From an uncultured Chthonomonadaceae bacterium (lineage in GTDB: Bacteria > Armatimonadota > Chthonomonadetes > Chthonomonadales > Chthonomonadaceae), in the NCBI GenBank assembly GCA_963817895.1, contig CAWFQB010000004.1:320001-384000 (forward strand): a stretch of DNA of 64,000 nucleotides, written 5' to 3'. Below, piece by piece: positions 42,352-50,482 of this stretch (the stretch's first letter is position 1; each line of letters starts with the position of its first letter). Below the pieces are notes generated by a model. The model was not told the origin of the DNA. It saw only the letters and a list, made by a program, of their open reading frames with translations, and did not search any database. The translations under genes were made by a program, and so were the position numbers.

Positions 42352-43300
42352 ACCCAAGTTGCTACCTAACTTTTTAGCCAGTGATGGCAAAGGCCAGCAC
42401 GGTGAGGAACACCTTCAACTCAAAGCCGCGTGGTGTCACGGCATGAATGCACTTGGCAAACCGCAAGTTGATCTGACTAAAGGTGGTTTCCACTCGTTTG
42501 CGCGTGTATTGGCTGAGGTACGTGACCCAACCCGGCACTTGACGGGTGCTGTTCTTTTTGCGCGCCGCAATCAACTCGATCTTGGCGTGTTGGCCTAAGA
42601 AGTCCTCGACCGTATAATCGGTGTAAGCGGCATCGGCATGTACTTCGGCATCTGGGGGCAAGTCCAGCGGCAAGCTCCGAAACGCATTGATGTCGGCGAC
42701 GCTGCCGGGTTCTATCAGGATTTCGACGGGCTGACCATTGGCCGCAATCAGCAAATGCACCTTCACGCCGTAGAAATAGCGCTTTTTGCTGGCGATAACG
42801 CCGCGAAACGCCGCGTCCGGGTACAATTTGCACCGCCAGATGCGAATGTTGTCACACACCGGTACCGGGCAACTGTCCACGACATACTCGCCCGACGGGT
42901 TGGTGTGGATCGCACACAGCGCCAGAACGTGCCAGAGCGCTTGCCAGAGCGTGTCGGGCAAAGCGTGCAGGCGACGATTGAGCCGGCTTTTGGAGAGCAT
43001 TGTGGGAATGTAGCCGTGTTCTTTGAGGAAAATGCGGCTTAGTTCCTGATTGCCGACGAAGAACGTGGCGGCCACCAGCACGGTGGTCATCACTTCGGCA
43101 TCGGTCATGCGGGCTTGCGGGTCTTCTTTATGCCCATAAGCTAAAAGAAAGTCGGCACAAACACAGTAAATTGTGATAATCTTTTCTTGCATAACGGAAC
43201 TCCTGTCTAGTGTGGGTTGGCACTTTCACTATACCAGAGACCGTTATGCGCTTCACAAAATGCTCGGCTGCTTGCTACACGCTTAGGTAGCAACTTGGGT
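42352..43300 (-). mobile_element. IS982-family insertion sequence (second, distinct element)
   Basis: Perfect 18-bp IRs ACCCAAGTTGCTACCTAA (42352-42369 and 43283-43300), 5-bp target duplication TATTA. Confidence 0.93.
42374..43192 (-). CDS. IS982-family transposase
   Basis: MTDAEVMT, SKSRLNRRLH, VDSCPVPVC, FYGVKVH, ADAAY, RKRVETTFSQI. Confidence 0.92.
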   Translation of the reverse strand: MQEKIITIYCVCADFLLAYGHKEDPQARMTDAEVMTTVLVAATFFVGNQELSRIFLKEHGYIPTMLSKSRLNRRLHALPDTLWQALWHVLALCAIHTNPSGEYVVDSCPVPVCDNIRIWRCKLYPDAAFRGVIASKKRYFYGVKVHLLIAANGQPVEILIEPGSVADINAFRSLPLDLPPDAEVHADAAYTDYTVEDFLGQHAKIELIAARKKNSTRQVPGWVTYLSQYTRKRVETTFSQINLRFAKCIHAVTPRGFELKVFLTVLAFAITG

Positions 43301-45197: not shown

Positions 45198-45454
45198 GTC
45201 GGTCTCTCCTTAAACGGTGCTGTACTTCTGTTTGCGGCTCATACAAGCCAAAACGCAGAAGTGAATACGAGCAGGCTTGCCGCGCTCAAAGCGCCCAATG
45301 CCTGTACGCTGCATAAACGACGGAACACAGGGGCAGAATGTTCGCTTTTATCTGCAAGATACATTTTCTGCGTGGAAGACACCCTTCTGATAAGGTGGTA
45401 GAATACAATCAGCAGAATTGTTTACGCGCAGGAATCAGGCATACAGGAACAAGC

Positions 45455-48088
45455 ATGAGTGTACAGGAACATAACAGCGGAAGAAACGGCAGGGGCAGCA
45501 GGCGACAGCATTGCGCCGCGCGACACATACAAATTGTATTAACGCTCGGCCTCGCCATGCTATCCCTTGCCGCCGCGTGTCAGCAGGCGCGTCAGGGAAC
45601 AGTAGGGAGCCAGGGAGATAGGGAGACAGGGACACACGGAGACAAGGAGCCTCAATCAAAAATCGAAAATCGAAAATCGGCAATCCCTTCATCCCTCATC
45701 CCTCATCCCTCATCCCTGAGTGATATTCGTCCGCTTCTGGAAGCGAAATGTCTGGGCTGCCATGGGGTGGGGAACCGATTGGCGGGACTGGATTTGCGAA
45801 CCCGCGAGTCCGCGCTGAAAGGTGGGACGCGGGGCGCGGCGTTTGTGCCGGGTAAATCCGATAAAAGCCTGCTGATACAACTGGTCAATGGCAATCGCGC
45901 GCCCCTGATGCCGCCAACCGGCAAACTGCCTGCCGGAGAAATCGCCCTGCTCAAACATTGGATTGACAGCGGCGCGACATGGCCTTCGGGCGCGATCACC
46001 AAAGCGCAGCCGCAAGTGTGGTGGTCGTTTCGCGCGCCTAAAACGCCGCCCATTCCCAATATCCATTCCGCGTGGATACGCAACCCCATTGACGCTTTTG
46101 TACTTGCCAAACTTCAGGAAAACGGCTTGAAGCCGTCCCCGCCCGCGCCCCGTCGCGTTCTCATTCGCCGCGCCTATTTCGACCTGATTGGCCTGCCGCC
46201 CACGCCCGCCGAAACGGAAGCGTTTCTTAACGATAAATCTCCGACTGCTTGGGAAAAGGTTGTGGATGGCCTGCTGGCTTCACCGCGCTATGGCGAACGG
46301 TGGGGACGGCACTGGCTGGATTTGGCGCGTTATGCCGACAGCGGCGGGTTTGAGGGCGACAAAGACCGGACGCTCGCGTGGCGGTATCGCGACTACGTGA
46401 TAGACGCCTTCAATCAGGACAAGCCGTACAACGAATTTGTGCGCGAACAGATTGCGGGCGACGAACTCAAGCCCAATGACCCCAACGCCCTCATCGCCAC
46501 CGGCTATCTCGCCTGCGGGCCGCAGGACATTGTGGAAAACAACGCCCGAACCCGCGCCAACGAACTCGATGACCTTGTGGCGACAACGGGTTCAGTCATG
46601 CTCGGCCTGACTGTGGGTTGCGCCCGCTGCCACGACCACAAATACGATCCGGTCAAGCAGACGGATTATTACCGGCTGTCCGCCATTTTCGCCCCGACCG
46701 AACGGCGCGAAGTGGAGTGCGCGAGTGTGGAAGAGCGCCGCGTGGTTACGGAACATAACGCGCCCCTGGAAAAACAACTGGCTGCGTTGCGTCCACAGGC
46801 GGACGCTTTGCGCAAGCAGGGCGAAGAAGCGGCGAAAAAGGCGGGACAGGCAAAGCCCGATGACGCGCAAATACTCGCCGCGCTGCCGCAAACACAGCGC
46901 GGGCAACTTCAAGCCTTGCAACAGCAAATCAAGGGACTGGAAGCGCAGCGCATGGACGTTCCCCACGCGCAAGTCGTTATGGACAAAGGCCGCGACTTTC
47001 CCGCCGCGCATTTATTATTGCGCGGCGACGCTTATCATCCCGGCGATGAGGTGAAACCCGGCTTCGTGTGTTCCCTTCCGGATGGCGCGACCGACATCGC
47101 TCCCGCCCCCGCGAACGCGACCACAACCGGCAGGCGTACCGCGCTTGCCGACTGGCTGACAAGCGCGCAAAATCCGCTCACCGCCCGCGTGTGGGTCAAC
47201 CGCGTCTGGCGGCAGCACTTCGGCAGAGGCTTGGTCAACACCCCAAGCAACTTCGGACTGAATGGCGAACTCCCTTCCCACCCGGAACTGCTGGACTGGC
47301 TGGCAAGCCGCTTTGCTGCAAAGGATGAAGGCGGAAGGATGAAGGATGAAGGGAAGATACGAGATACAAGATACGAGATACGAGAAGGAGAGAATTCATC
47401 CTCCATCCTTCATCCTTCATCCTTTGCATGGCATCTCAAACCTCTGCACCGCCTGATGCTGCTTTCGTCCACGTATCAGCAGGCGTCGGATATGCGCGAG
47501 GAGGGGATGAAAGCCGACGCGCAGGATAAATACTACTGGCGGATGCCTGTGCGCCGGTTGGAAGCCGAACCTATCCGCGACAGTATTCTGAAGCTGGCCG
47601 GAAGTTTGAATTTGCAGATGGGCGGCCCGCCCGTGTATCCGCCCATTGACCCGTCCCTGCGCGCCGACACGTTTCAAGGCCCCAACTGGCATGATGGCGA
47701 GGATGGGCCTTCCACATGGCGGCGCAGCGTGTACGTCAAGGTGAAACGCTCGACTCTCCTGCCCGAACTGGAAGTGTTCGACTGCCCGGAAATCACGTAC
47801 ACCGTCGCGCAGCGCAATGTCACGACCACGCCCCTGCAAGCCCTGACCCTGCTCAACGATCCGCTGATTCTGCGGCAGGCGGGATTGTTCGCGCAGCGGC
47901 TCCAAAAAGAGTATCCCGACAATCCGCGTCAACAGGTAGAACGCGCCTACCAATTAGCCTTTAGCCGACTGCCCTCCGCGCAGGAATTAAGTCTAAGTCT
48001 AGCGTTTATGCAAAAGCGCGACGCGTCCGCCCTGCCCGACTTCTGCCACGCCCTGTTCAACCTGAACGAGTTCGTCTACGTGCCATAA
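45455..48088 (+). CDS. Planctomycete cytochrome c / DUF1549 / DUF1553 (PSD1) protein with two repeat-derived inserts
   Basis: CLGCH, NPIDAFV, YGERWGRHWLDLARYAD, GCARCHDHKYDP, SHPELLDWLA, RRLEAEPIRD, TPLQALTLLN, NEFVY. Confidence 0.92.
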   Translation: MSVQEHNSGRNGRGSRRQHCAARHIQIVLTLGLAMLSLAAACQQARQGTVGSQGDRETGTHGDKEPQSKIENRKSAIPSSLIPHPSSLSDIRPLLEAKCLGCHGVGNRLAGLDLRTRESALKGGTRGAAFVPGKSDKSLLIQLVNGNRAPLMPPTGKLPAGEIALLKHWIDSGATWPSGAITKAQPQVWWSFRAPKTPPIPNIHSAWIRNPIDAFVLAKLQENGLKPSPPAPRRVLIRRAYFDLIGLPPTPAETEAFLNDKSPTAWEKVVDGLLASPRYGERWGRHWLDLARYADSGGFEGDKDRTLAWRYRDYVIDAFNQDKPYNEFVREQIAGDELKPNDPNALIATGYLACGPQDIVENNARTRANELDDLVATTGSVMLGLTVGCARCHDHKYDPVKQTDYYRLSAIFAPTERREVECASVEERRVVTEHNAPLEKQLAALRPQADALRKQGEEAAKKAGQAKPDDAQILAALPQTQRGQLQALQQQIKGLEAQRMDVPHAQVVMDKGRDFPAAHLLLRGDAYHPGDEVKPGFVCSLPDGATDIAPAPANATTTGRRTALADWLTSAQNPLTARVWVNRVWRQHFGRGLVNTPSNFGLNGELPSHPELLDWLASRFAAKDEGGRMKDEGKIRDTRYEIREGENSSSILHPSSFAWHLKPLHRLMLLSSTYQQASDMREEGMKADAQDKYYWRMPVRRLEAEPIRDSILKLAGSLNLQMGGPPVYPPIDPSLRADTFQGPNWHDGEDGPSTWRRSVYVKVKRSTLLPELEVFDCPEITYTVAQRNVTTTPLQALTLLNDPLILRQAGLFAQRLQKEYPDNPRQQVERAYQLAFSRLPSAQELSLSLAFMQKRDASALPDFCHALFNLNEFVYVP
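45593..45717. repeat. In-frame compound repeat (AGGGAGAC)n-(AAAATCG)n-(CATCCCT)x4
   Basis: Encodes QGTVGSQGDRETGTHGDKEPQSKIENRKSAIPSSLIPHPSSL just before the cytochrome c domain. Confidence 0.88.
47321..47424. repeat. In-frame heptamer hairpin (AAGGATG)n-(GATACGA)x4-(CATCCTT)n
   Basis: Encodes KDEGGRMKDEGKIRDTRYEIREGENSSSILHPSSF; the core is nearly identical to 1168-1237. Confidence 0.92.
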
Positions 48089-48120
48089 TATACAATGATG
48101 AAGCAAAGGTTGAATGGCTG

Positions 48121-48521
48121 ATGATTTCCACTGCTGATCTAAAATTAATCGCTCGCGCTCGGTTGAAGGATGCAGATGTTCTTTTTCGCAACAAGCGTTA
48201 CGATTGTGCCGTCTATGTATGTGGATATGCCGTTGAAGTAGCTTTGAAAGCGCGGGTTTGTCAGACATTGAGCTGGGCAGGCTTCCCGGAAACTAACAGC
48301 GAATTTGCACAATACAAAAGTTTGCAGACACATAATCTTGATACTCTATTGCATTTGTCTGGCATTGAAGCCGCTATTAAAACAGGCTTCTATCGCAATG
48401 GTCTGATGTCTTAACTTGGAATTCGGAAATGCGTTATCAGCGTATTGGAACAACAACGGATGTAAGGGCTTTGATCATAATTCGCGCAGCGCGTGTTCTG
48501 GTCAAGAGGATAATTCCATGA
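48121..48521 (+). CDS. HEPN domain protein, frameshift near 48390
   Basis: ARLKDADVL..AVYVCGYAVEVALKA..THNL; the next frame gives WNSEMRY...IP* ending at 48521. Confidence 0.8.
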
Positions 48522-48985
48522 ATACATCAGTACTCCAACTTCTGGATAAACTAACCCGATTAGAACAAGAATTTGCCAGTAACTACGGCGCATTCTCCTT
48601 ATTTGCTCTAATGTTGCGTGAAGAAGCGAATGATCGGTGGGATTTAGTTGTTTCCGCAACATGGCTTGAACAGATTAATACCAATCCTGTCACGACCATT
48701 TTCTCAAAAAGTTTGGGGATATATCGTCCTAACCATGACAGCTTTTTTTTCAGGTTAGGGCAGGTTCTCACCTCTGATGAACTCATCATGCTATCACGGG
48801 TAGTTACGCTGGCTCCAGATACAAGTTTTGTTCAAACTATGAACAAACTTTATAGCCTTGAACATGCTATAAGCGAATTTACGAACCTTGAAGTTGACGG
48901 CGTAGATTTCAAGCGTGGTTATGTGATTACGTCACAATCAACTGCTGCGACAATGCCTCAACAATATGCTAAGGTTGTTTTGTAA
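48518..48985 (+). CDS. Hypothetical protein, probable partner of the HEPN protein
   Basis: ATGA overlap; FSLFALMLREE..WDLVVSATW; AT-richer than flanking genes. Confidence 0.7.
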   Translation: MNTSVLQLLDKLTRLEQEFASNYGAFSLFALMLREEANDRWDLVVSATWLEQINTNPVTTIFSKSLGIYRPNHDSFFFRLGQVLTSDELIMLSRVVTLAPDTSFVQTMNKLYSLEHAISEFTNLEVDGVDFKRGYVITSQSTAATMPQQYAKVVL

Positions 48986-48997
48986 GAGGATGTAACC

Positions 48998-50482
48998 ATG
49001 GCGGAACATGACGATCATAGTGGGCCGGACACCATTGCGCGGCGGGACTTTCTGGCGCGCGCGGGCGGCGGCATCGGCGGACTGGCGCTGGCGTTTCTGC
49101 TCGGCGAAGAGGGCGCTTCAGGAGAAGGGGTCAGGAGTCAGGCGGCAGGGGACAGGGGAAAACCACTGCTCGACACCCAAAACCCTTTGTTTCCGAAAAA
49201 GCCGCATTTCGCGCCCAAAGTGAAGCGGGTGATTTCCTTATTTATGTTCGGAGGAATCAGCCATATTGATACGTTCGACCCGAAAAGCGAACTTATCAAG
49301 CAGGATGGCGCTTCGGTTGCGGGGCGTCCCGGCTTTGATACGGGCGGGCGGAGCGCGCCCGGGAAACTGATGAAAAGCCCCTGGCAGTTCAAGCCCTATG
49401 GACAGTGCGGAATGCCCGTGTCCGACCTGTTGCCCCACATCGGAAGCTGCGCCGACGATATTGCCCTGATTCGTTCCATGAAGTCCGACAGCAATAACCA
49501 CGTTCCGGCTGTGTACCACATGCTGACCGGCAGTATTTTGAGTGGCAGGCCGGGATTGGGCAACTGGATTACCTATGGATTGGGAACCGAAAACCAGAAC
49601 CTGCCCGCGTTTGTCGTAATGACCGATCCGCGCGCTCTTGTCGGCGGCGGCGCGGGCAACTGGAGCGCGGGCTTTCTTCCCTCCAACTATCAGGGCGTAC
49701 AGTTCCGCAGTCAGGGTTTGCCAGTTCTCAACCTGAAGCCGCCCGCAGGCGTGACGCCCGAAAAGCAGCGCGAACATCTGGATTTCATCGGGAAACTCAA
49801 TGAGGAGTTTCTGCGCGGACGTCCGGGCGAGCAGGAATTGGCGGCGCGAATACGGGCGTATGAACTGGCGTATCGAATGCAGTCGGAAGCGACTGAAGCC
49901 GTAGATTTGAGCCGCGAGTCCGAAGCCACGAAAACCCTGTACGGTCTGGACAAACCCCAAACCGAAATCGTCGGGCGGCAATGCCTGCTGGCGCGTCGGC
50001 TGGTGGAGCGCGGCGTTCGGTTCGTGCAGATCTATTCGGGCGGCGGCGTGTTCGACCAGAGTTGGGACGCGCATAACGCGATGGTTCCCAACCACACGAT
50101 GCGGGCGGGCGAAATTGACCTGCCGATAGCCGGATTGATTCGCGACCTGAAACAGCGCGGTCTATTTGAAGATACCCTGCTCGTGTTCCATACCGAGTTT
50201 GGCCGGATGCCGTTTACCGAGGGCAGCGTGGGCCGTGACCACAACCCCAAAGCGTTTTCCGTGTGGCTGGCGGGCGGCGGCATTAAAGGCGGGACCATCT
50301 ATGGCGCGTCCGATGAAATCGGCTATGTCGCGTCGGAAAACGTCCAGACGGTGTACGACCTGAACGCCACCATTCTGCACCTGCTCGGTCTGGAACACAC
50401 CCATCTGACCTATCAATACGGTGGCCGCAACATGCGCCTGACCGACGTAAGCGGCGAAGTCATTCATCCTATATTGGCGTAA
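48998..50482 (+). CDS. DUF1501 family protein (Tat-like signal)
   Basis: RRDFL, GGISHIDTFDPK, ARRLVERGVRFVQ, WDAH, EFGRMP, GRDHNP. Confidence 0.92.
   Translation: MAEHDDHSGPDTIARRDFLARAGGGIGGLALAFLLGEEGASGEGVRSQAAGDRGKPLLDTQNPLFPKKPHFAPKVKRVISLFMFGGISHIDTFDPKSELIKQDGASVAGRPGFDTGGRSAPGKLMKSPWQFKPYGQCGMPVSDLLPHIGSCADDIALIRSMKSDSNNHVPAVYHMLTGSILSGRPGLGNWITYGLGTENQNLPAFVVMTDPRALVGGGAGNWSAGFLPSNYQGVQFRSQGLPVLNLKPPAGVTPEKQREHLDFIGKLNEEFLRGRPGEQELAARIRAYELAYRMQSEATEAVDLSRESEATKTLYGLDKPQTEIVGRQCLLARRLVERGVRFVQIYSGGGVFDQSWDAHNAMVPNHTMRAGEIDLPIAGLIRDLKQRGLFEDTLLVFHTEFGRMPFTEGSVGRDHNPKAFSVWLAGGGIKGGTIYGASDEIGYVASENVQTVYDLNATILHLLGLEHTHLTYQYGGRNMRLTDVSGEVIHPILA

Follow-up and report, generated by a model that had tools for sequence, protein, structure and literature searches.

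A recurrent stop-free heptamer unit in an in-frame hairpin insert of a DUF1553 gene and in other genes of the same genus

The window (the whole stretch of 64,000 nucleotides that was analysed) is part of an assembly designated G000 in the following; G002 is its sister species and G001 a further genome of the genus. It contains a gene whose product has PF07635, PF07583 and PF07587, each above the curated cut-offs of the Pfam profiles, which makes it a PSCyt1/DUF1549/DUF1553 protein. The real start of the gene is probably further downstream than that of the open reading frame given here. The gene, its repeats and its neighbor are:

45338..48088, + strand: host open reading frame (916 aa) with the planctomycete cytochrome c domain (PSCyt1), DUF1549 (PSCyt2) and DUF1553 (PSD1)
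45604..45717, + strand: second in-frame repeat composite of the host frame, with modules AGGGAGAC, AATCGAA and ATCCCTC; it precedes the cytochrome c domain
47315..47428, + strand: in-frame insert, a composite hairpin of 38 codons between a conserved F and a conserved W
47321..47350, + strand: left arm, four AAGGATG-type units plus AA, read KDEGGRMKDE
47328..47334, + strand: variant unit AAGGCGG, which abolishes the in-frame TGA at 47333-47335 and leaves two stem bases unpaired
47330..47413, + strand: codons of the only segment with a pLDDT below 50 (model residues 416-443), a coil between two helices
47355..47385, + strand: loop module (AGATACG)x4.4, without stops, read KIRDTRYEIRE
47395..47424, + strand: right arm (TTCATCC)x4.3, the reverse complement of the left arm, without stops on the sense strand
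48998..50482, + strand: DUF1501 gene downstream of the host gene, with a short in-frame heptamer tract at 49126-49159

An earlier note on this DNA had described an insert of about 35 residues at a place where the family normally has only a few. Alignment to homologs agrees: in all seven of the closest homologs from other genera (L003-L009) the F and the W are four codons apart, compared with 38 here (net +34 aa). Among 150 library representatives of DUF1553 the F-W motif is recognisable in 134, of which 114 have the short spacing, that is, no insert. The insert forms a hairpin of −51.3 kcal/mol (z −7.5; none of 200 shuffles was equally stable), in which the bases of the variant unit AAGGCGG make a 2x2 internal loop interrupting the stem. 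As regards a target-site duplication such as a MITE would leave, a 5-base direct repeat stands at the flanks of the insert, its right copy doubling as complement of the stem base; the homologs with an empty site are too diverged for comparison. In the predicted structure of the DUF1549-DUF1553 part (model m5957eae96277; mean pLDDT 92.7, pTM 0.92) only the insert is below 50, and it models as a disordered surface loop of the host protein. A fold search with this model against the PDB gave no match at E ≤0.001, the top weak rows being phycobilisome linker domains.

Two short, AT-richer reading frames lie between the DUF1553 and DUF1501 genes (48117-48985), and similar sequence adjoins the G002 ortholog; the 189-aa frame of this interval had no Pfam match. 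At 1140-1238, near the end of an ABC-transporter ATPase-like reading frame and apparently frame-shifted in the G000 assembly, the window has another composite, with a purine-only left arm and with a loop module and right arm identical to those of the insert. A 272-aa reading frame at 42374-43192 (− strand) presumably resembles an IS transposase. No tRNA was found in the 64-kb window.

The five 7-mers at 47321-47355 read AAGGATG, AAGGCGG, AAGGATG, AAGGATG and AAGGGAA, just as the earlier note had it. Codons of the host ORF begin at 47333 and 47354, and a pure array would be read KDEG(stop)RMKDEG(stop), where the actual reading is KDEGGRMKDEG. From this it had been claimed that precisely the two units that would bring in stops, 2 and 5, are altered. 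That is right for unit 2, in which AAGGCGG falls exactly on the would-be TGA. The supposed unit 5, by contrast, is simply where a four-unit array ends: four is the length of 123 of the genome's 173 AAGGATG arrays, and what follows unit 4 is the transition to the next module, (AGATACG)4.

Exact tandem arrays are numerous in G000, with an excess of period 7 (n = 557) and period 8 (n = 173) over period 6 (n = 31) and period 9 (n = 7). They are short and dispersed, are mostly intergenic and form 473 inverted pairs of arms; in 390 of the 406 close pairs the G-rich arm comes first. The arrays were classed with a dicodon model trained on long ORFs of the genome, by which, of 160 AAGGATG arrays with at least three units, nine are read in sense in a confident gene, 34 are antisense and 117 lie outside confident genes. 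All nine coding-sense arrays have AAGGCGG at the would-be stop (eight at unit 2, one at unit 3), and the sole coding-sense AGGGATG array has AGGGCGG, with the identical two-base GCGG change, at its stop unit. The predicted genome-wide enrichment of variants at would-be stops is thus found. AAGGCGG occurs in only 7 of the 151 other AAGGATG arrays (Fisher p 7.6e-11), two of these seven being mirror arms of sense elements and three being in frame but below the strict threshold.

There is some circularity in this enrichment test, since the frame could not be open without a change of some kind. Its non-circular parts are that the change is the same every time and that units away from the stop are no more variable in sense arrays than in the others (3/27 vs 105/592, p 0.60). 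There are eight possible one-base escapes from the stop, none of which is used in the ten coding-sense arrays. Outside genes, among 453 units, AAGGAGG (6 units) is as frequent as AAGGCGG (5 units). In the AGGGAGT family of G000 each of the two coding-sense arrays is saved by a single-base change in the following unit; the remaining stop-bearing families of this genome have no coding-sense arrays. Since a pure four-unit AAGGATG arm has TGA in all three frames, only stop-free arms would survive in sense.

The pattern recurs in the sister species, there also in a second repeat family. In G002, 11 of the 13 matches to the variant motif lie within long KDEGG frames, the host genes including what we take, from the translations, to be methionyl-tRNA synthetase and acetyl-CoA synthetase. 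Units of the family ARTGATG contain two TGAs each, and all ten coding-sense arms lack both, in a non-random sample of 42 loci (62 arms of 85 matches) that comprised all arms with a changed second unit and pure ones in contig order. The variants are AACGCGG (6), AACGAGG (2), AACGTGG (1) and AACGCCG (1), so that the wobble base of the Arg codon (CGC, CGA or CGT) varies, and the units that lose just one of the two stops (AACGATG, AGCGATG, AGTGCTG) were seen only outside genes. Topoisomerase I and prolyl-tRNA synthetase are presumably among the host genes, again as recognised from the translations.

The idea that AAGGCGG is a coding-specific invention was rejected, because other bacteria have it mainly away from long reading frames. 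At least 121 loci in GTDB genomes of many phyla carry the exact 30-base arm; among the 126 matches listed for this 30-mer, a long open KDEGG frame holds 17 and an antisense frame 15, the other 94 lying in neither kind of frame. Within the order the motif is present in 5 of 68 genomes, and in another genus of the family none of nine matches examined (of 12) lies inside a long frame. AAGGCGG is accordingly a common sister unit of the AAGGATG family. In G000 and G002 it is rare between genes and fixed within them, which would be expected if selection retains it at the places that need it. Its wide occurrence outside long frames suggests that selection sorts and freezes a copied variant and does not act by site-by-site repair.

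The sites of the repeats are conserved and the modules at them turn over. At the identical site the G002 ortholog of the host gene, with 87% identity over the region, carries a different hairpin, in which unit 2 is changed again; the comparison is weakened by the fact that this ortholog is split upstream of the insert. The composite at 45604..45717 likewise has other modules at the site in the G002 ortholog. For ten of the 13 variant loci of G002, neighboring sequence identified the ortholog in G000, and there repeats are found at the corresponding place with mostly different modules. The whole insert of the window recurs in identical frame at 97% and 95% identity in two unrelated genes of G000, the orthologs of which in G002 and G001 have other modules in frame at these sites. 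Codon changes relative to G002 at the flanks of the insert are mostly synonymous (61 vs 17 non-synonymous in 200 codons downstream, 16 vs 3 in 60 codons upstream). By such comparisons the insertion sites are old and common to the genus, and the repeat modules have been swapped wholesale.

G000 yielded 12 DUF1553 paralogs, seven of which have an insert in this very loop, and four unrelated DUF1553 proteins of the library have, by eye, repeat-like peptides in it. On a tree of 33 DUF1553 domains made without the loop (two rows, in which the loop end was not located, were left out) insert status needs nine label changes, at least five of them forced by well-supported branches; the clustering of insert labels on this tree is not significant (57-60 of 500 shuffles were as low). 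The DUF1553 loop is, as far as these alignments indicate, an insertion hot spot.

Repeats also stand at the borders of genes. At L163 (G002) and its counterpart G000:C2:651947 a shared upstream gene runs into differing sequence past the repeat, as if the repeat had been a recombination point. At gene junctions of G000 (e.g., C1:64902-65000 and C1:895266-895394) pure AAGGATG arms give an upstream stop and an overlapping ATG, the downstream protein gaining a repeat-derived N-terminus, and many intergenic elements of this genome start directly at the stop codon of the upstream gene.

Inside genes the reading frame takes precedence over the hairpin. CATCCTT arms keep a matching AAGGATG arm in only 6 of 34 cases inside genes, compared with 55 of 126 elsewhere (p 0.005); where the matching arm is missing in genes, a stop-free purine module takes the place of the left arm. 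Of 29 CATCCTT arms in genes, 26 are read in one and the same frame. Among G000 elements of at least 45 bases flanked by coding signal on either side, 114 are open and in frame, 132 are gene-junction-like and 20 have overlapping shifted frames. About 20 of 134 gene-internal elements therefore look frame-broken, a few of these 20 being junctions or non-repeats. Breaks of this kind, were they real, would point to recoding and speak against plain translation of the inserts.

Frame changes are also found in ordinary coding sequence of G000 (32 per approximately 34,800 aligned residues, three of them at repeats and some double-counted). These single-base frameshifts are probably long-read errors, and G002 is likewise noisy. 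Seven frame-broken G000 genes were checked, five from the list of about 20 and two found otherwise. Five are intact in G002, one is present in G002 as an intact and a +1 copy, and the seventh, in which G000 and G002 are both broken at the insert, has its intact form in G001 alone. The positions of the breaks are not shared. A programmed bypass or excision would show as a break or stop conserved in orthologs, whereas each of the seven has an intact ortholog or copy; recoding or bypass was therefore rejected for these seven of about 20, the breaks being assembly noise or recent damage. At G000:C1:1595456-1595537 (L238) an insert in a HemD-like domain has two in-frame TAG with the frame kept, the orthologs in G001 and G002 being intact; the gene may really be split, with a restart, or the assembly may contain two errors that compensate each other.

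These results bear on the question whether the hairpin is skipped, by excision from DNA or RNA or by ribosome bypass, so that the mature protein would be without insert. The hairpin is stable, some inserts look frame-broken (including that in prolyl-tRNA synthetase and the one with two in-frame TAG), and four-helix-bundle genes of the 23S intervening-sequence family occupy the loops of such arms, all of which would fit. Skipping would, however, exert no selection against stops; the in-gene hairpin is often lost and the frame kept; and the seven broken genes checked have intact counterparts, with indels also striking ordinary coding sequence. We consider skipping extremely improbable. Only a little less improbable, and still very unlikely, is local repair, by which the gene first acquired a pure array whose stops were later lost to point mutations, independently at each site. 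One-change ARTGATG units outside genes and the varying Arg wobble do indicate that stepwise mutation feeds the pool of variants. Yet all ten coding-sense arrays share a two-base change and not one of eight one-base escapes is used; the exact 30-mer is spread over many phyla, mostly away from long open frames (17 of 126 listed matches within one, and 0 of 9 in the other genus); and the arrival of a pure array would inactivate the gene before any repair.

Positive selection, beyond mere tolerance, could also act on the KDEGGRMKDE peptide or on the GCGG unit, for use as a charged linker or for avoidance of an internal Shine-Dalgarno sequence. AAGGAGG would give the same peptide by one change but makes a Shine-Dalgarno-like GGAGG before ATG, which AAGGCGG does not; GGC is the preferred Gly codon (0.56 vs 0.17 for GGA); and the in-gene CATCCTT arms keep to one frame, as stated above. 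This reading is nevertheless unlikely, as orthologs carry unrelated peptides at the identical site, AAGGCGG is common outside genes elsewhere, and most DUF1553 proteins (the 114 of 134) do without the insert. A more far-reaching proposal is that a dedicated system rewrites fixed hairpin sites by swapping four-unit modules from a genome-wide pool that includes coding-compatible alleles, the hairpins being empty versions of a mobile unit that, when complete, has a PF05635 gene in the loop. All five PF05635 four-helix-bundle genes in G000 and G002 lie, by eye, between a G-rich arm and its inverse:

G000:C2:440314-440628: PF05635 gene in a hairpin loop
G000:C1:1459284-1459589: PF05635 gene in a hairpin loop
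L292, L294 and L296 (G002): PF05635 genes in hairpin loops

They are a possible clue to a full-length element. If the proposal were true, coding-compatible module alleles such as KDEGGRMKDE would let the repeats live in essential genes. It is doubtful, since G001 has repeats and no PF05635 match and since few other long-range pairs of arms enclose a cargo gene (a search between distant arms gave 29 pairs, mostly with unrelated neighbors).

The earlier note had concluded that the insert is translated and selected for an open frame. We find this supported, with the qualification that only unit 2 is substituted and that the variant appears to be a standing, copied unit. The reading that fits best is that the insert is translated and that selection keeps its frame open, because the stop units are changed in both species, the Arg wobble varies, the flanks change mostly synonymously and the loop is predicted to be disordered. 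We propose that the insert is a copy of a genome-wide class of composite repeats built from modules of about four 7- or 8-base units, with a G-rich module first and a C-rich one second, often forming a hairpin. Some composites sit in permissive protein loops at old sites, and their modules are occasionally replaced, presumably by copies from other repeats of the genome via ectopic gene conversion or template switching. Purifying selection would then leave two outcomes on the sense strand: an arm with AAGGCGG where the in-frame stop would be, or another purine module that is free of stops, the hairpin being given up. That GCGG is found rather than the one-base GAGG would need nothing but the copying of a ready allele. 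The insert would be translated as a disordered surface loop, the peptide being tolerated and probably without function. The architecture, the enrichment, the uniformity of the change, the conservation of sites and the turnover of modules are seen directly in the sequences; translation, neutrality of the peptide and copying are deduced from them. As a whole this explanation, copying of composite repeats followed by a filter against stops, is in our view quite likely.

The class of repeats itself is known. Cyanobacteria have heptanucleotide repeats called STRR, a related class. The long simple-sequence repeats (LSSR) of Xanthomonas (GGGAATC) and Nostoc (GGGGA(C/T)T) are, as far as described in PMC4692102, heptanucleotide arrays of about four units that are dispersed and frequently paired in convergent inverted orientation; most are intergenic and close to stop codons, a minority is in genes, and conservation between close species is weak. 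The arrays described here share these properties, including the rarity of sense arrays in genes (9/160). They differ from that account in that composites are built by stacking 7- and 8-base modules from many families, more than 100 of these composites being in genes, and in that a stop-bearing arm is read in sense via a stereotyped variant unit. The TAACTGA direct repeats of Beggiatoaceae likewise have stops in all three frames in one orientation and "split" sets with a related 7-mer, and coding potential governs where the arrays are placed; by the description in PMC4679880 the stop-bearing orientation is essentially absent from the interior of ORFs, whereas here it is admitted via a fixed stop-free unit.

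Palindromic elements of Rickettsia, in the review PMC10969869, are in-frame palindromes of 100-150 bp in unrelated metabolic genes, with a peptide thought to be compatible with the fold. The present inserts resemble them in being in-frame palindromes in unrelated genes; the Rickettsia elements are, by that review, non-tandem with conserved sequence and peptide, whereas here neither is conserved and tandem modules are exchanged at fixed sites. The coding palindromes of Nematomorpha mitochondria, inverted repeats within translated genes, show a comparable compromise between hairpin and protein; in what PMC6649704 describes, the arms are conserved protein and pair perfectly, whereas here the arms are added and pairing yields to the frame. 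DRT10 is described in PMC12632851 as making tandem-repeat DNA, and nothing in the present data links it to these repeats. New here are the fixed stop-free allele and the exchange of modules at fixed coding sites; in the literature searched, mainly that with open access, no account of a stereotyped stop-free unit was found.

The finding reveals no new decoding or splicing. For annotation it means that KDEGGRMKDE and SSFILHPSSF are repeat-derived peptides that should be masked, and the single-base frameshifts of G000 bear on other findings from this genome. Both in core enzymes and in proteins that are uncharacterised, DUF1553 among them, the inserts mark surface loops that tolerate added sequence. 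How bacterial heptamer repeats arise is a long-standing question, for which this genus offers a clean handle: the stereotyped stop-free unit together with the parallel swaps of modules argues, at the level of sequence, that arrays may be copied between loci, beyond local slippage alone, with the coding sites acting as a filter that preserves otherwise rare alleles.
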